The notes: generated from the letters alone by a model not told the origin. Shown: positions 15,242 to 21,726, numbered from the stretch's first letter. The stretch: 60,583 nucleotides of DNA from Candidatus Omnitrophota bacterium (GCA_043732705.1 JAYTHE010000016.1:1-60583); one strand, 5' to 3'. Translations and numbers: made by a program.

Positions 15242-16159
15242 ATGAGTATTCAAATTTATATCGATGGAAAATTTTACGCGAAGGAAGACGCGAAGATTTC
15301 AGTTTTTGATCATGGGCTGCTTTACGGCGACGGCGTGTTTGAGGGGATTCGCTCCTATAATTCCTGCATTTTTAAATTGGATGAGCATTTGGACCGCCTT
15401 TGGGAATCTGCGCACACTTTGATGATCCAGATTCCGATGACGAAGCTTGAAATGCAAAAAGCAATCATCGCAACGCTCAAAAAAAATAGCTTCACGGACT
15501 CTTATATTCGCGCGATTGTGACGCGCGGTGTTGGGGATCTCGGGCTTGATCCGTCGCTTTGCAAAATGCCTACGGTGATTATTATTACCGATAAAATTAA
15601 ACTTTATCCCGAATCACTTTATCAAAATGGTCTCAGCATTATTACTGTGCCGACCGTGCGCAATTTACCCGAAGCGGTTAATCCTTCGATCAAGAGTTTG
15701 AATTATCTCAATAACATTCTTGCGAAGATTGAAGCCAAGAACTCGGGCTGTGTCGAAGCCTTGATGCTGAATCATCAAGGTTATGTCGCGGAATGTACGG
15801 GTGACAACGTTTTCATGATTAAGCATGAAGGGGTATCCAAAAAGCCGATTCTTTTAACCCCGCCGACTTATTTGGGCGCGCTTAAGGGTATTACGCGGCA
15901 GGGAATCATCGAAATCGCGGCAAGGCAGAAAATTGTTTTTGAAGAAAGAACTTTGACCCGCCATGATCTTTTCAACGCGGATGAGGTTTTTCTTACGGGA
16001 ACCGCAGCCGAAGTGATCCCTGTCGTTAAAATCGACGGGCGTGTGATTGGAACCGGTAAGCCTGGTAAAGTAACCCAGCAGCTGCTTAAAGGGTTCCGCG
16101 AAATTGTGCTCAAAGACGGCGTGCGGTACACGCTTGGCTCGAAAGCGCACGGAGCATGA
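15242..16159 (+). CDS. ilvE: Branched-chain amino acid aminotransferase
   Basis: DHGLLYGDGVFEG, KSLNYLNN, GITR, FLTGTAAE. Confidence 0.95.
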   Translation: MSIQIYIDGKFYAKEDAKISVFDHGLLYGDGVFEGIRSYNSCIFKLDEHLDRLWESAHTLMIQIPMTKLEMQKAIIATLKKNSFTDSYIRAIVTRGVGDLGLDPSLCKMPTVIIITDKIKLYPESLYQNGLSIITVPTVRNLPEAVNPSIKSLNYLNNILAKIEAKNSGCVEALMLNHQGYVAECTGDNVFMIKHEGVSKKPILLTPPTYLGALKGITRQGIIEIAARQKIVFEERTLTRHDLFNADEVFLTGTAAEVIPVVKIDGRVIGTGKPGKVTQQLLKGFREIVLKDGVRYTLGSKAHGA

Positions 16160-16160
16160 A

Positions 16161-16262
16161 TCCCGTTAGAAGCTTAACCAATAATAATTTTCCTGATTCG
16201 AAAATGAGGGTTCGGGTTGTGCCGCAGAAGATTGCCCTTTATTTGTGGAGCTTCTAACGGGA
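16161..16262. mobile_element. Family C MITE-like element, copy 1
   Basis: TIR TCCCGTTAGAAGCT/AGCTTCTAACGGGA flanked by (A)TGAA direct repeat. Confidence 0.8.
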
Positions 16263-17323
16263 TGAAAATTGAAAAGCTGCTCACCCAAGACCCCATTTGG
16301 CATTCCGCCAAAGGCCCGCATGAAGACGTCGTGGTTAGCACGCGCATCCGTTTAGCGCGTAATGTCGAAGGTTTTTATTTTCCATCCCGTCTGAAAGGCA
16401 CTGAACGCCGCAAGCTTATCAAAAGCACGGAAGCCGCGATTAGAAACAAAGTCTTTTTTAAAGACTGCGAATTATTTCAATCGAATAAGCTGGAAGATGT
16501 TGAGCTGCAATTACTGCTTGAGCGGCATTTAATCAGCCGTGAATTTTCAAAAGATAAAGGCGAACGCGCTGTTTTGCTCGCGCCGGATGAATCACTCAGT
16601 CTCATGCTTATGGAAGAGGACCATGTCCGTCTGCAGGTTTTTGAAGCGGGTTTAAATTTAAAGCAGGCTTGGAAAAAGGCCAATGAAGCCGATGATCAAC
16701 TTCAGAAGAATATGCAGTTTTCATTTGATCCGAAAATTGGTTATCTTACGGCCTGCCCAACCAATGTCGGCACCGGTTTACGCGCCTCATGCATGCTGCA
16801 TATTCCTTGCCTTGTGATCACTAAGCAAATTCAAAAAGTTCTCCAGGCTCTGACTAAACTTAATTTAGCGGTGCGCGGCATGTTCGGCGAAGGTTCGCAA
16901 GCGCTCGGAAATTTTTTTCAATTTTCCAATCAAATGACTTTGGGACAGCCTGAAGCCGAAGTGATTGATAACCTTTTAAGCGTGATTGAACAGGTCGTCA
17001 GCCATGAACACGAAGCGATGGCGCAATTGCAGAGATCTAAGCCCTTTGAAATGGAAGACCAGGTTTGGCGGGCGGTTGGCTTACTTAAATCCGCGCGCGT
17101 AATCAGCTCCTCAGAAGCGATTAGCCTGCTTTCGATGATTCGTCTGGGCGTGAACTTGAAATATTTCGGCAAAACCCTCGATCATGCGCGGCTTAATCAG
17201 CTTTTTCTCTCGATCCAGCCGGGACATTTGCAAAAAAAGCGCGGAAAAGAGCTTTCCAGCCCTGAACGGGATTCCTATCGCGCTGAATTTATCCGCAAGC
17301 AGCTCTCTAAACTTATGCTTTAA
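16262..17323 (+). CDS. mcsB: Protein arginine kinase McsB
   Basis: STRIRLARN, EEDHVR, GYLTACPTNVGTGLRAS; upstream of clpC. Confidence 0.93.
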   Translation: MKIEKLLTQDPIWHSAKGPHEDVVVSTRIRLARNVEGFYFPSRLKGTERRKLIKSTEAAIRNKVFFKDCELFQSNKLEDVELQLLLERHLISREFSKDKGERAVLLAPDESLSLMLMEEDHVRLQVFEAGLNLKQAWKKANEADDQLQKNMQFSFDPKIGYLTACPTNVGTGLRASCMLHIPCLVITKQIQKVLQALTKLNLAVRGMFGEGSQALGNFFQFSNQMTLGQPEAEVIDNLLSVIEQVVSHEHEAMAQLQRSKPFEMEDQVWRAVGLLKSARVISSSEAISLLSMIRLGVNLKYFGKTLDHARLNQLFLSIQPGHLQKKRGKELSSPERDSYRAEFIRKQLSKLML

Positions 17324-17371
17324 AGGCCCTTTCGGCCTCCATTAAAGTCTATCGTCTAGAGACTCTAGTCC

Positions 17372-17380
17372 TGCTATAAT
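17372..17380 (+). promoter_or_regulatory. Extended -10 element upstream of clpC
   Basis: TGCTATAAT; strong SD GGAGGAG near 17421. Confidence 0.5.
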
Positions 17381-17434
17381 CACGCCGTTATTATATCGAT
17401 TTCATAAGACCCGTTTTTTGGGAGGAGTTATATT

Positions 17435-19945
17435 ATGTTTGATCGTTTTACAGAACGCGCTCGCAAAGTCATCATTCTTGCCAAGGAAGAAGCCAAACGC
17501 TTTAATCACGATTACATCGGCACGGAGCATATTTTGCTCGGCCTCATTAAAGAAGGCGAAAGTGTCGCTGCCGCGGTTTTACAAAACTTAGGCCTCTCAC
17601 TTGAAACCATCCGCCTCGAAGTTGAAAAGCTGGTGCAATACGGCCCGAGCACCATGGTTTCAGGCGATATTCCCTTTACTCCCAAAGCTAAAAAGGTAAT
17701 TGAACTCGCCATGGATGAAGCCCGTCGTTTGGGACATAACTACATTGGTACCGAGCATTTATTGCTGGGCTTGATCAAAGAAGGCGAAGGCGTTGCCAGT
17801 CACGTGCTTATGAATGTCGGTCTTGATTTGAATAAGGTGCGCGCGGAAGTCATTAAACTTTTAGGATCGGCTTCACCTCAGGGTGAGGGCGCGGAACCGA
17901 ATCCTGCGGTGGGTAATGGCGGCGGCAATTCAGGCGGGGGCAGTGGCGGCGGCGGGAGCGGCGGCAGCAGTAAAGCAAAAACAAAGACTCCGGCGCTTGA
18001 CGCATTTGGACGCGATCTTTCGACTCTCGCGCGCGAAAATAAATTGGATCCCGTCGTTGGGCGCGAAGATGAAATTGAACGCGTGATTCAAATTTTAGCG
18101 CGCCGCACTAAAAACAATCCCGTGCTTCTCGGTGAAGCGGGTGTCGGTAAAACCGCGATTGTCGAAGGTTTGGCGCAGCGTATTTTTTCGGGCGATGTTC
18201 CCGAAATTTTGCAGGATAAACGCATTGTTGTGCTTGATCTCGCACTGATGGTTGCGGGCACGAAATACCGCGGACAATTTGAAGAGCGTATCAAAGCGGT
18301 GATGGATGAAATCCGCCGCAGTGAAAATGTTATGATTTTTATCGACGAAATTCACACGCTTGTCGGCGCCGGCGGAGCGGAAGGCGCAATCGACGCGTCC
18401 AATATTTTGAAGCCTGCGCTCGCGCGTGGTGAGATTCAATGCATCGGTGCGACGACGCTTGATGAATACCGCAAATATATCGAAAAAGACGCCGCGCTTG
18501 CGCGCCGCTTTCAAACGGTTATGGTGGATCCGCCGTCCGTGGATAATGCGATTTTAATTTTAAAAGGTTTGCGCGACAAATATGAAGCGCATCACAAGTT
18601 AAAAATTACCGATCAGGCGATTGAAGCCGCGGTGCGTTTTTCGGACCGTTATATCACCGGCCGTTTTCTTCCGGATAAGGCAATTGACGTGATCGACGAA
18701 GCTTCTTCGCGCGCGCGCCTTTCGGTGACGACTTTGCCGAAGGATCTTAAAAAGCTTGAAACTGAAATCGAAGCCCTGAAGAATGAAAAAGAAGGCGCGA
18801 TCAAAGGCCAGGATTTTGAAAAGGCGGCGCGTTTGCGTGATGAAGAGCGCAAAGCCAAAGAAAGGCTCGCTGGAATCAAGAAGACTTGGAAAGAATCCAA
18901 ATCAGAAATTGAAATCAGCGTATCAGAAGAAGACATTGCTTACGTGGTTTCAAAATGGACCGGGGTTCCGCTAGCGAAACTTGAAGAAAAAGAAACCTCG
19001 CGTTTGTTGAAAATGGAAGATGAACTGCATCGCGGCGTTATCGGACAGCATGAAGCGATTCACGCGATTTCGGACGCTGTGCGCCGCTCGCGCTCAGGTT
19101 TGCGCAATCCCAAACGTCCGATCGGATCTTTTATTTTTCTCGGGCCCACCGGTGTGGGTAAAACGTTGCTTGCGCGTACGCTTGCCGAATTTATGTTTGG
19201 TGATCCGGACGCAACGATTGTCGTGGATTGCTCGGAATACGGCGAAAAATTTAACGTTTCGCGTTTGGTCGGAGCGCCTCCGGGATATGTCGGCTATGAA
19301 GAGGGTGGGCAATTGACCGAAAAAGTACGCCGCCGGCCTTATTCCGTGGTTCTTTTCGATGAAATCGAAAAAGCCCACCCTGATATTTTTAGCCTCTTGC
19401 TGCAGCTGATGGATGAAGGCCGTTTGACTGATTCCTTCGGACGTAAAGTTGATTTTCGCAACACGATTGTGATTATGACTTCGAATGTCGGTGTCGGTAT
19501 GTTGAAGAAGCAGGATTCGATGGGTTTTATTCAAGAGCGCGACGATGTTGATTATGAAAACATGAAAAAGAAACTTCTCGAAGAAACCAAAAAAGTGTTT
19601 CGTCCTGAATTTTTGAATCGCGTGGATGACATCATTGTTTTTCATCCTTTGCGTCGTCAGGATTTGGAACAAATTATTCATATTGAGCTCAAAGAAGTCC
19701 GCGACCGGCTCAAAGATAAAAAAATGGAACTTGTGATGACCGATGAAGTCCTCAAGTTTTTAATCGACGAAGGTTATGACCCCGTTTTTGGTGCGCGGCC
19801 GCTCAAGAGAACCATTCAAAAGTATATTGAGAATGTACTTGCGGAAGATATTCTTTCGGGGAAATTTAAAGACGGCGATAAAATCAGCGCCGAGCTGCAT
19901 GGCGGCCGGATTAATTTTGAAAAAGCAGTCACAAATATTGCCTGA
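17435..19945 (+). CDS. clpC: ATP-dependent Clp protease ATPase ClpC
   Basis: Two Clp-N repeats, [11 protein letters not shown] coiled coil, [12 protein letters not shown] loop. Confidence 0.97.
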
Positions 19946-19953
19946 TATGTTTA

Positions 19954-20013
19954 GCTCCGGGCTTTGCCCAACCGCGAGTTTGCTTTTTCGCTCTGCGCTT
20001 TCTGCGCAACCGC
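19954..20013 (+). repeat. Two tandem Family A repeats
   Basis: GCTC-CGGGC-TTT-GCCCA-ACCGC (19954-19975) and GCTC-TGCGC-TTTCT-GCGCA-ACCGC (19990-20013). Confidence 0.8.
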
Positions 20014-20040
20014 ACGGCGTTCAAAGATAAGGCTAAATAA

Positions 20041-20856
20041 ATGAGTATCCATCGCGACCAGCTTAAAACGCTCATCAACTTAAAGCATGCCGTCGCTACA
20101 TCAGGCGCCGGAATTATTTCTTTTTTTACGCAAATCGGCGGAATTAATATTTTGCTGTCGCGCACGGTGGGATTAATTTTTAAAGGAGAAATCCGCTGGA
20201 AATCAACGGTTGAGCAAATGTTTGAAATCGGCGTGATGTCTTTGCCGCTTGTTTTTTTAACCTCACTTTTCACCGGTATGGTGCTGGCATTGCAATCGGC
20301 TTATCAGTTGCGGCTTTTTACCGCGCAGCAATTTACCGCTGACCTCGTTGCACTTTCGATTTGCCGCGAATTGGGACCTGTCTTGACCGCCATGGTTGTG
20401 GCGGGGCGCGTGGGCGCGTCAATCGCGGCTGAGCTCGGAACGATGAAGGTCACGGAGCAAATCGATGCTCTCAAGTCACTTGCCATGGATCCTGTCGAAT
20501 ATCTTGCCGTGCCGCGCTTTTTAGCGGCAATTTTTATGCTTTTTGCTTTAACCATTTACGCGGATATCATTGGAATGCTGGGCGGCTATCTTGTTTCTGT
20601 TTTTAAGCTGGGAATCAGCTCGCATGAATATATTAAGCGTTCCATCGATTCATTAATGGTTAAAGATGTGATGACCGGTTTAATCAAAGCTTTTTGCTTC
20701 GGCGGAATTATTTCAATTGTCGGCTGCTTCTACGGGTTTAATACTAAGGACGGTGCGGAAGGTGTGGGCCGCGCGACGACTTACGCCGTGGTTGTGGCAT
20801 TGATTGCGATCATTGCTTCCGACGTTCTATTCACCGCAATCTTTTATTTCTTTTGA
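20041..20856 (+). CDS. mlaE: MlaE-family ABC permease
   Basis: RELGPVLTA, GRVGASIAAELGTMKVTEQIDAL. Confidence 0.93.
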   Translation: MSIHRDQLKTLINLKHAVATSGAGIISFFTQIGGINILLSRTVGLIFKGEIRWKSTVEQMFEIGVMSLPLVFLTSLFTGMVLALQSAYQLRLFTAQQFTADLVALSICRELGPVLTAMVVAGRVGASIAAELGTMKVTEQIDALKSLAMDPVEYLAVPRFLAAIFMLFALTIYADIIGMLGGYLVSVFKLGISSHEYIKRSIDSLMVKDVMTGLIKAFCFGGIISIVGCFYGFNTKDGAEGVGRATTYAVVVALIAIIASDVLFTAIFYFF

Positions 20857-20862
20857 TATGAA

Positions 20863-20965
20863 TCCCGTTAGACTCTTAACCTACAATGTTAATCATCTTA
20901 AGAATTCAGGGTGTGAAAAATATTTGCAGTTTTATTTTCAATATTTTGAAGAGAGTCTAACGGGA
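20863..20965. mobile_element. Family C MITE-like element, copy 2
   Basis: TIR TCCCGTTAGACTCT/AGAGTCTAACGGGA flanked by (A)TGAA direct repeat. Confidence 0.8.
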
Positions 20966-21726
20966 TGAAAATTGAAATTCGTGACGTTTATAAATCTTTT
21001 GGCACCAAGCAGGTTTTGCGCGCCGTTAATTTAGTGATTAAAGAAGGGGAAACTCTGGTTGTCATCGGAAGTTCCGGCGGCGGGAAAAGTGTTTTGCTGA
21101 AAATTATTACTGGGCTGCTTGAACCTGACCGAGGGGAAGTGCTTTACGACGGACGAACGCTCGCGAGCATGACGTCCGAAGAAGCAGAGGCGCATCAAAT
21201 GAAGTTTGGGATGCTTTTTCAAAGCGCGGCATTGTTCGACTCTTTGAATGTTTTGGAGAATGTCGGGTTTGTTTTGGAAGAACACCGCGGTATGACCGCG
21301 GCGGAGATTCGTCCGATTGTGCGCGATAAATTACGTATGGTGGGACTGGAAGGCGTGGAACATCAAATGCCCGCAAGTCTCTCCGGCGGAATGAAAAAAA
21401 GGGTGGGGCTCGCTAGAGCGATATGCTATGATCCGCAGGTTATTTTGTATGATGAACCGACAACCGGTCTTGACCCGATTAATTCGGATGTGATCAACGA
21501 TTTGATCATTTCCATGCAGGAAAAACTGCATGTGACCTCAGTTGTGGTGACGCATGATATGACAAGCGCGTACAAAGTCGCGGACCGAATTGCGATGCTT
21601 TACCGCGGTGAAATTATCGGAGCGGGAACGCCGGAAGAAATTCAAAATACAAAGAACCCGGTCATCCGACAGTTTGTGACGGGTTCAGCTCATGGGCCGA
21701 TTACGGACGAACAGAAAAAGTCTTAG
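20965..21726 (+). CDS. mlaF: MlaF-family ABC ATPase
   Basis: GSSGGGKS, LSGGMKKRVGLARA, YDEPTTGLDP. Confidence 0.92.
   Translation: MKIEIRDVYKSFGTKQVLRAVNLVIKEGETLVVIGSSGGGKSVLLKIITGLLEPDRGEVLYDGRTLASMTSEEAEAHQMKFGMLFQSAALFDSLNVLENVGFVLEEHRGMTAAEIRPIVRDKLRMVGLEGVEHQMPASLSGGMKKRVGLARAICYDPQVILYDEPTTGLDPINSDVINDLIISMQEKLHVTSVVVTHDMTSAYKVADRIAMLYRGEIIGAGTPEEIQNTKNPVIRQFVTGSAHGPITDEQKKS

Follow-up and report, generated by a model that had tools for sequence, protein, structure and literature searches.

The window analysed here, a stretch of 60,583 nt of DNA from a Candidatus Omnitrophota bacterium (GCA_043732705.1, JAYTHE010000016.1:1-60583), carries two copies of a short inverted-repeat element, one located between an ilvE-like gene and mcsB and the other between an mlaE-like and an mlaF-like gene, both lying exactly where the downstream gene has its start codon. 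They are probably gene-less copies, of MITE type (miniature inverted-repeat transposable element), of a very small mobile family with hairpin ends, whose full form would carry a nuclease gene only, and which would rebuild the start codons that it hits and gate their use by means of an RNA stem. A probability of roughly 70% is attached to this reading.

The two window copies share the same architecture (Table 1). Copy 1 is laid out as ATGAA, TCCCGTTAGA-AG-CTTAAC ... GGAG-CT-TCTAACGGGA, and copy 2 as ATGAA, TCCCGTTAGA-CT-CTTAAC ... AGAG-AG-TCTAACGGGA, with the two bases next to the 9-mer covarying between the ends (AG/CT in copy 1, CT/AG in copy 2) and with the 13-mer ATGAAAATTGAAA following from positions 16262 and 20965, respectively. 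The final base of each element is simultaneously the A of the rebuilt ATG of mcsB or mlaF. On the left side, the stop codon of the ilvE-like gene (TGA, 16157-16159) overlaps the left ATG of copy 1, and the TGA of the mlaE-like gene lies 1 nt before that of copy 2. Each left ATG opens a micro-open reading frame (micro-ORF) that crosses the element, the first one stopping at a TAA within the right repeat, 4 nt 5' of the mcsB ATG, and the second one at a TGA that overlaps the mlaF ATG (ATGA). An earlier reading of the window from its sequence (the original prediction) had described the coordinates of both elements, their repeats, ATGAA flanks, covarying bases and common 13-mer, as well as the two ORFs of 33 and 36 codons, and all of these were found as described. 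The 13-mer is native gene sequence and no part of the element, the element-free congeners having an mcsB that begins (A/T)TGAAAATTGA and an mlaF that begins ATGAAAATTGAA. The left flank of copy 1 was assigned on the basis of the flanks of 35 copies and of the empty sites of congeners. It had also been pointed out that removal of copy 1 restores an ATGA overlap between ilvE and mcsB; this is arithmetically true, but the overlap exists in no congener, where the spacers go from 8 to about 180 nt.

Genome-wide, the end 9-mer has 65 exact occurrences in the host, forming 27 pairs of 91-104 bp (26 of them at 99-104 bp, the remaining one at 91 bp), against none for a reversed-pattern control. A profile built from the 27 pairs retrieved 36 copies (E values between 2.8e-20 and 3.2e-6) and two fragments. 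Each copy is one hairpin whose ends are inverted, and the polarity is identical in 36 of 36, the left side reading ATGAA-TCCCGTTAGA-nn-CTTAAC and the right side TTTATTTG-GGAG-nn-TCTAACGGG-ATGAA. Most positions of the 9-mer show the same base in 34 of 35 copies, and the right arm presents GGAG in about 19 of 35. The position of the copies relative to genes is equally regular: in 34 of the 36, the ATG (31 copies) or GTG (3 copies) of an ORF of at least 82 aa falls exactly at the right edge; a further copy has the secD ATG 11 nt downstream of that edge, and the copy at C2:134423 has GGG at the corresponding codon position. The left start is overlapped in 13 copies by the terminal TGA of a long ORF (108 codons or more) lying upstream. 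Free ATGAA sites in the same genome were counted at 324 predicted starts, 698 intergenic positions, 25 stops and 6873 positions within genes, a crude census based on the longest ORFs of at least 90 aa. Comparison of the 34/36 copies at starts with the 324/1047 non-genic sites gives a binomial p = 1.5e-15, under the assumption that only non-genic sites are tolerated. The start-codon placement claimed in the original prediction is thereby borne out, and the tabulation of all end pairs that it had proposed did not reveal the off-start pattern that would speak against it.

The interiors of the copies are saturated, with a median pairwise identity of 0.56 (0.54 after shuffling) and a maximum of 0.75, and their pairwise comparison revealed no recent duplicates in this genome, where the copies look old and immobile. 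Evidence of mobility comes from relatives. Four congeners (G001-G004), whose flanking genes are 69-83% identical in nucleotide sequence, were compared at five loci. The mlaE/mlaF junction is empty in all four, with a single ATGAA in G001, G002 and G003 in place of ATGAA-element-ATGAA; C5:25137 is likewise empty in all four, C5:23671 in three, C42:22108 in G001, and the ilvE/mcsB junction in G002 and G004. Since clean empty sites exist at the five tested loci, the copies are real insertions. A reciprocal case was also found, a copy of G004 occupying a site that is empty in this genome. In the related genome G038 about 25 copies are near-identical, and for this reason a recent burst can be recognized there. 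MITE status, as originally proposed, is supported by the inverted repeats, the 36 copies, the burst and the empty alleles, which the original prediction had named as a check.

Copies in separate lineages occupy the same starts. The mlaF start is occupied both in this genome and in G020, that of secD in this genome and also in G021 and G038, and that of the gene at G000:C43:6601 in both G004 and G038. These cases involve different genera and families and different subfamilies of the element, with close relatives being empty, which indicates recurrent hits on favoured starts. Among copies of relatives whose gene has an orthologue here, 2 of 21 coincide with an occupied gene (p = 0.08). The ilvE/mcsB junction presents two further situations. 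In G001 (contig C121) it holds an unrelated insert of about 180 nt without similarity to the element family. In G003 (C6) there is a right-end remnant of about 20 nt, ending in TTCTAACGGG directly before the mcsB ATG, as though a deletion had spared only the right arm to serve as initiation region.

The ends of the copies clarify how the start codon is rebuilt. At the outermost position 30 copies have the pair T..A and 4 have C..G; the junction codon of these 4 starts with G, being GTG in three copies and GTA in the fourth. The left start is variable in its first base (A in 26 copies, T in 4, G in 2, none in 4), while the first base of the right start tracks the end base of the element. Because the right base follows the element end and the left one varies, the first base of the rebuilt start must be the element's own. 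The duplicated bases, on the other hand, track the target: ATGG/ATGG flanks the secD copy of G038, and relatives present TGAG/TGAG twice, TGAT/TGAT once and TGG/TGG twice. In the host genome TGAA is found in most copies, TGAAA in two and just TG in one; the flanks of C42:22108 are TGA(T)/TGA(C), at a site where G001 reads ATGATC. Among the young copies of G038 the duplication is of 3 nt (TGA) in four and of 4 nt in one or two. These data fit a duplication of TGA(N), 3-4 nt long. A 5-nt duplication of ATGAA and a 2-nt duplication of GA were both considered and rejected, the data fitting TGA(N) plus an A or G belonging to the element. Of the (A)TGAA duplication originally proposed, what holds is that the target is duplicated at the start codon; the unit is TGA or TGAN, with the first A or G derived from the element, and not the whole ATGAA.

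Pairing of the two arms gives a 16-bp stem, which compensatory changes maintain. In a MAFFT alignment of 20 copies, the 16-pair helix formed by columns 5-22 with columns 100-115 has 96.9% of its cells paired, a value that none of 500 shuffles reached (89.0 +/- 0.9%), and 6 pairs are changed on both sides, against 2.6 +/- 0.7; sliding the partner by 1-3 columns leaves 33-49% paired. At the two variable stem positions the pairs are AU in 9 copies, GC in 6 and CG in 4, and GC in 8, UA in 8, AU in 1 and CG in 1, respectively. Folding of the two window copies as RNA gave -40 and -37.2 kcal/mol (z -2.69 and -5.05), with the stem present in the centroid. The 5' arm of the stem begins with the final base of the old ATGAA, and the 3' arm takes in the AU of the downstream AUG together with three bases of the GGAG. 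The covering of the downstream initiation region by the stem, as anticipated in the original prediction, thus extends to both the ribosome-binding site and the start.

The arms are also under constraint in place, as seen at an orthologous site of another genus. There, the region upstream of a yebC-like gene was fetched from all 20 genomes via the gene itself, which avoids a bias towards intact ends. Six of the 20 genomes hold an orthologous copy. In these copies, 30 of 32 arm columns are invariant (pairwise identity 0.97-0.98), against 18 of 74 in the interior (0.59; p = 9e-12), whereas invariant columns in the gene amount to 88/100 at codon position 1 (0.945), 97/100 at position 2 (0.983) and 27/100 at position 3 (0.628). 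A seventh genome, G043 (L204), has a decayed orthologous copy, both arms being changed and the right one reading now as a plain GGAGGAG ribosome-binding site; one genome presents a different element and the rest are empty or rearranged at this locus. Conservation of the arms in six copies and their decay in G043 indicate purifying selection on both arms of intact copies, which can nevertheless be lost.

Translation through the element was evaluated from the ORF opened by the old start. Among the 32 copies that have a left start, this ORF reaches the right end in 16, with 13 stopping at the TAA of the right repeat, 4 nt before the start, and 3 at the TGA overlapping the new ATG. In the interiors of 29 copies with canonical ends, the frame of the old start has 31 stops and leaves 16 copies open, to be compared with 40 stops (10 open) and 55 stops (3 open) in the other two forward frames, and with 41 (8 open), 38 (8 open) and 49 (3 open) in the three reverse frames. 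The contrast between frames (16/29 against 32/145 open, Fisher p = 5.7e-4) is a fairer test than base shuffling (3.8 +/- 1.8 open copies, maximum 10 in 2000), which is a weak null. This old-start frame is also open in about half of the G024 and G038 copies; in those young G038 copies whose duplication is 3 nt long, the old ATG falls out of frame, giving only 6 codons. Translational coupling via the micro-ORF is therefore no more than a plausible reading of these frames. Of the stop-free ORF originally said to cross the element, the excess of openness over other frames and shuffles stands, but it applies to only 16 of 32 copies.

In the mechanism proposed, each window copy landed on a native start codon with duplication of the target TGA(A), and its last base, A, rebuilds an ATG together with the right-hand TG. 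The right arm supplies GGAG or AGAG 11 nt upstream of the new start, and the old start, left behind with the gene's own ribosome-binding site, opens a short ORF through the element, ending 4 nt before the rebuilt start or in overlap with it. In the RNA, the arms would pair into the 16-bp stem, burying the new ribosome-binding site and the AU of the AUG. Ribosomes that initiated at the old start, or that arrive from an upstream gene whose TGA overlaps it, would then melt the 5' arm and expose the GGAG and the AUG, termination 4 nt before the new start or on it favouring re-initiation. For the long form described below, landing on a start codon would provide transcription and translation without signals of its own. 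We infer that the micro-ORF is translated and unmasks the start and that the nuclease moves the element, and any account of how start codons are chosen is of the same order.

The link to a nuclease was established in relatives. In G038 a pair of ends delimiting 278 bp encloses an 88-aa ORF with a GIY-YIG domain (Pfam PF01541, E 2.6e-17), and its closest homologues among 41 relatives, two copies in G024 and one in G020, are also bracketed by the ends. One of the G024 copies has a 5-nt direct repeat at an intergenic site, and in the G020 copy a change in the 9-mer is compensated. Of the 34 homologue matches, the remaining 30, all of at most 51% identity, have no bracketing ends. A survey of 96 genomes of the order revealed ends 245-275 nt apart at 14 places in 11 genomes, with none in the control. 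Ten of these 14 long forms have an uninterrupted GIY-YIG ORF of 86-92 aa, whose last codons (...RFLSLTG) run through the right arm; in one, the first ~25 codons are out of register, and three have no ORF of at least 70 codons, though their listed starts look homologous. The full-length form thus measures about 277 bp and has the GIY-YIG nuclease gene as its only gene. Short copies occur in 31 of the 96 genomes: 9 genomes have both forms, 2 the long one only, 22 the short one only and 63 neither. Eight or more short pairs occur in 11 genomes, of which 7 have the exact long form and G020 a variant, with none found in this genome, G051 or G059. Some short copies keep the right subterminal sequence of the long form, as deletion derivatives would. 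The nearest solved structures to the long-form protein are the UPF0213 protein BH0048 (1zg2, E 9.6e-10) and Slx1 (7wme, E 0.2); in NCBIfam only a sub-threshold match to group I intron endonucleases was obtained.

Transposase-type enzymes were looked for in the genomes with copies. In the host genome, end-like 10-mers (at most 1 mismatch) lying 150-6000 bp apart gave only neighbouring short copies or chance pairs, with no enclosed gene. G038, with 42 short copies, has no pair more than 312 nt apart among 100 of its 120 end sites, and no gene is enclosed at solo ends in five regions. A RAYT/IS200-type enzyme was rejected, as Y1_Tnp is found in four of five genomes, being missing in G038, and none of the 10 loci fetched (from 11 matches) has the repeat within 1.5 kb; the sole end-like 9-mer with 1 mismatch at these loci lies inside the gene match of G024:C120. 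Also rejected were IS4/IS5 (PF01609), with no gene in G000, G038, G024 and G020 and one unrelated gene in G040, and Harbinger-type enzymes (PF13359), with none in five genomes; rve, DDE_3, IS110 and serine/tyrosine recombinases were not searched. The autonomous partner with the same terminal repeats that the original prediction had asked for corresponds to no such transposase in this genome; the candidate is the GIY-YIG mini-element, seen in relatives only. On several contigs of G038 (loci L134 and L136), the same end 10-mers occur also as mini-hairpins of 29-48 nt and as forms of 195-312 nt, one of the longer forms being filled with GC-rich nested hairpins.

Several observations weigh against the reading preferred here. 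Neither the long form nor a cognate nuclease was found in this assembly, and the two GIY-YIG homologues of the host (37-38% identity) lack these flanking repeats, one being flanked by NTS-like hairpins and the other located beside a tRNA gene. The co-occurrence of long and short forms has an odds ratio of 12.9 and p = 5e-4, a significance that is overstated since the genomes are related, and the two genomes with the long form only, as well as the 22 with short copies and no exact long form, do not follow it. To our knowledge, a single-domain GIY-YIG hydrolase has no means of joining DNA, and transposition by such an enzyme would be unprecedented. The right arm has AGAG, a weak ribosome-binding site, instead of GGAG in 13 of 35 copies. 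The other 16 of the 32 micro-ORFs stop after 3-20 codons, three of them after just 3-4, and openness is the same for operon-internal copies (7/13) and for those without a long same-strand ORF close upstream (7/12), with 7 further left-start copies set aside; the equality fits, without proving it, the gene's own ribosome-binding site driving the micro-ORF everywhere. In another genus the polarity differs: there the CTTAAC arm lies beside the gene, and 5-7 nt separate the element from the ATG. Two host copies (C28:3601-3710 and C29:20541-20651) are flanked by TTCAT at the left end and ATGAA at the right end, without a direct repeat, and their leftward ATGs open only 39 and 4 codons, respectively.

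Part of the evidence above could be read in a different way, in which the host has kept the hairpin as a translational gate that makes downstream translation dependent on upstream translation or stem melting, the mobile origin being only history. This overlaps with the preferred reading and differs from it in the present beneficiary; it is possible, at odds clearly below even. The arms of the six orthologous copies being conserved like codon positions 1 and 2, and the interior like position 3, speaks for such a gate, and the same can be said of the saturated interiors that still keep a length of 99-104 bp, of an orthologous-looking secD copy common to two genera with an unalignable interior, of the missing nuclease partner in this assembly and of the right-end piece alone being kept before mcsB in G003. 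However, as congeners lack copies at all five tested loci, the element is not needed for these genes, and G043 let both arms decay and evolved a plain GGAGG. In addition, RNA pairing alone would tolerate compensated changes, so the exact conservation of the 9-mer across many phyla points to protein recognition. Descent as an ordinary MITE from a conventional insertion sequence (DDE or HUH) that the draft assemblies lack, with the GIY-YIG gene as a passenger, seems improbable. Terminal inverted repeats with a 3-4-nt target duplication are indeed typical of DDE elements, and multi-copy insertion sequences are often lost from metagenome-assembled genomes. Against this are the enzyme searches just described (no gene enclosed by ends 150-6000 bp apart in this genome, no pair beyond 312 nt in the 100 of 120 G038 sites, Y1 genes unflanked by the repeat and absent in G038, PF01609 in none of four copy-rich genomes and PF13359 in none of five), the presence of a GIY-YIG gene or its remains in 14 of 14 pairs at 245-275 nt, and the short copies that retain the right subterminal sequence of the long form.

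About equally improbable is that the elements are recognition repeats of the Ssn type, that is, hairpin cut sites that modulate transformation or single-stranded DNA processing and are spread by another route. A single-domain GIY-YIG gene between its own repeats resembles the general arrangement of Ssn in the accessible part of its description (PMC11893778), and the long-form protein is 38% identical over 66 residues to a G000 gene flanked by NTS-like hairpins. The two arms, however, lie 70-260 nt apart, with target duplications and clean empty sites, and do not constitute a self-contained 30-bp hairpin; their sequence is unlike ATTCCC-N8-GGGAAT, the host genome has separate NTS-like repeats in 29 copies, and start-codon placement is no feature of NTS in the portion of the source available. 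Finally, the recurrence of MNPVRxLT at the N-terminus and of C-terminal residues among the micro-ORFs could suggest an immobile conserved leader or a family of small proteins (MNPVR... peptides) placed before certain genes. Such a reading is hardly credible, as the recurring residues are the translated arms, with the rest of the peptide unrelated between copies, half of the copies have early stops, no Pfam match was obtained and the only two Rfam hits are weak and outside the elements; the empty sites of congeners contradict it already.

If the preferred reading, that of a mobile family with a nuclease-only full form, is taken further, the element may represent a new class: an autonomous unit of ~277 bp, smaller than any described insertion sequence, which would use a bare GIY-YIG domain, land on start codons to borrow the promoter and ribosome-binding site of the host and rebuild the start, its gene-less copies being held by selection as strong as that on protein-coding positions, with the hairpin acting as a translation gate for the host. 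This stronger version is tentative and falls somewhat short of an even chance. Exact matches to the end 9-mer, counting one genome per species, were found in at least 123 stretches, and among the matches listed the record titles include Patescibacteria groups, Omnitrophota, Planctomycetota, Thermodesulfobacteriota, other Deltaproteobacteria, Gammaproteobacteria, Nitrospirota, Spirochaetia and others. The family is therefore widespread. No description of the element was found in the literature searched, a text collection that leaves out most subscription-journal papers, and it is apparently undescribed.

No known system among those compared combines inverted ends, target duplication, start rebuilding and a nuclease-only long form. 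Mycobacterial interspersed repetitive units (MIRUs) lack a hairpin and long terminal inverted repeats, occur in mycobacteria only and are frequently arranged in tandem arrays. The present element differs from them in its single hairpin, target duplication, rebuilding of the start with its own base, GGAG and nuclease-encoding long form. The likeness resides in being a small, supposedly mobile repeat at start codons; the accessible text of Brown and Wade (2025, J Bacteriol, PMC12548453) puts forward for MIRUs the idea of a mobile repeat that lands on start codons and is rendered harmless by a coupled internal ORF. The unmasking and re-initiation proposed here would agree with the RNA-unfolding and re-initiation models found in that same text (PMC12548453). 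The catalytic domain of the long-form nuclease is shared with homing endonucleases and with UPF0213/Slx1-type proteins. Homing endonucleases possess a separate DNA-binding domain and are copied into one cognate site by repair, unlike the long-form protein, which is a bare domain placed between inverted repeats and found at many unrelated start codons. REPINs with RAYT transposases, on which Bertels and Rainey reportedly published in 2011, are said to be ~100-bp hairpin doublets with conserved arms, a variable loop and a single-copy enzyme gene. That enzyme is a repeat-flanked Y1 (HUH) transposase, whereas the Y1 genes here are unflanked and G038 has none. The Correia/NEMIS and ERIC/IRU elements resemble the window copies in being inverted-repeat elements of 100-150 bp, co-transcribed with their neighbours and forming long RNA hairpins, but they duplicate TA, are intergenic and show neither start-codon specificity nor start rebuilding; we know of no nuclease-encoding long form for them. 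Correia/NEMIS of Neisseria and ERIC/IRU of enterobacteria are named as MITE-like repeats in the part of Delihas (2011, PMC3184786) that was accessible. For the Neisseria REP2 and Borrelia IR repeats the same part describes no target duplication or empty-site evidence, and REP2 differs further in lacking terminal inverted repeats and in carrying a promoter (PMC3184786).

The closest parallel for the enzyme is the Ssn family, GIY-YIG nucleases tied to the NTS, dRS3 and SRM hairpin repeats (Chenal et al. 2025, Nat Commun, PMC11893778). As far as the accessible text goes, both systems have a small single-domain GIY-YIG gene between hairpin repeats and many gene-less copies, the long form here being confined to relatives. 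The NTS is presented there as a self-contained hairpin of ~30 bp with an ATTCCC-N8-GGGAAT core and a shown role in transformation of Neisseria, with no target duplication or start-codon placement in the sections available (PMC11893778). The element differs from this description in having one arm on each side of a gene or of a 70-nt filler, in its empty alleles and in its start-codon sites. An integron attC-like site was also considered, given that GTTAGAC and GTCTAAC fit the core-site consensus, and rejected: the motif order is reversed, and the elements are single, with empty alleles and no cassettes.

Should the proposed reading be true, a transposable element would be able to sit in essential operons (mcsB-clpC, mla) without silencing them, and the replacement ribosome-binding site, the start base and the ORF from the old start would make up a compact natural design for translational coupling. 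It would raise the questions of how a hydrolytic nuclease moves DNA and how start codons are chosen as targets. Because the element is widespread, the annotation of gene starts would be affected across numerous uncultured lineages. That the arms are so strongly conserved in place offers a testable case of exaptation, with either the host or the element as beneficiary.

Table 1. Features of the two element copies and adjoining genes, in window coordinates
Feature	Position	Strand	Evidence or remark
ilvE-like aminotransferase gene	15242..16159	+	ORF list; Pfam Aminotran_4, E 3.2e-54
Copy 1, left ATGAA (displaced native mcsB start and left target duplication TGAA)	16156..16160	+	
Micro-ORF 1, 33 codons, MNPVRSLT...LWSF	16156..16257	+	no Pfam family
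Copy 1, 5' arm of the 16-bp stem	16160..16175	+	alignment columns 5-22; fold
Element copy 1, 102 bp, T...A	16161..16262	+	nhmmer E 1.5e-19
Copy 1, 3' arm of the stem	16248..16263	+	contains three bases of GGAG (16247-16250) and AU of the mcsB AUG
mcsB, protein arginine kinase type, from rebuilt ATG	16262..17323	+	Pfam ATP-gua_Ptrans, E 4.1e-63
mlaE-like permease gene	20041..20856	+	Pfam MlaE, E 1.1e-81
Copy 2, left ATGAA (displaced native mlaF start and left duplication)	20858..20862	+	single ATGAA in G001, G002, G003
Micro-ORF 2, 36 codons, MNPVRLLT...SLTG	20858..20968	+	ORF list
Copy 2, 5' arm of the stem	20862..20877	+	fold, alignment
Element copy 2, 103 bp	20863..20965	+	nhmmer E 1.2e-17
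Copy 2, 3' arm of the stem	20951..20966	+	AGAG replaces GGAG; AU of the mlaF AUG covered
mlaF-like ABC ATPase gene, from rebuilt ATG	20965..21726	+	Pfam ABC_tran, E 1.7e-31

The Pfam scan placed a Clp ATPase gene among the window neighbours. Rfam, searched over 15900-21300, gave nothing at either element with E up to 1. Two weak matches fall in the Clp ATPase gene, one to RAGATH-21 at 17535-17651 (23.5 bits, against a gathering score of 70.3) and the other to a group II intron D1-D4 model at 18719-18832 (19.6 bits against 32), and both are probably due to chance.

Two other GIY-YIG arrangements came to light. At G000:C26:40990-41410 a GIY-YIG gene of ~100 aa has hairpins on either side that agree with the published Neisseria NTS consensus at 27 of 28 positions, in a genome with 29 NTS-like hairpins and 41 ATTCCC-N8-GGGAAT sites, and this looks like a Ssn/NTS-type system in an Omnitrophota genome. 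At G000:C29:51853-52077 and at locus L151 of G007, small GIY-YIG genes lie beside or inside tRNA genes with the 5' part of the tRNA duplicated, which suggests another kind of mobile GIY-YIG cassette, one that would target tRNA genes.

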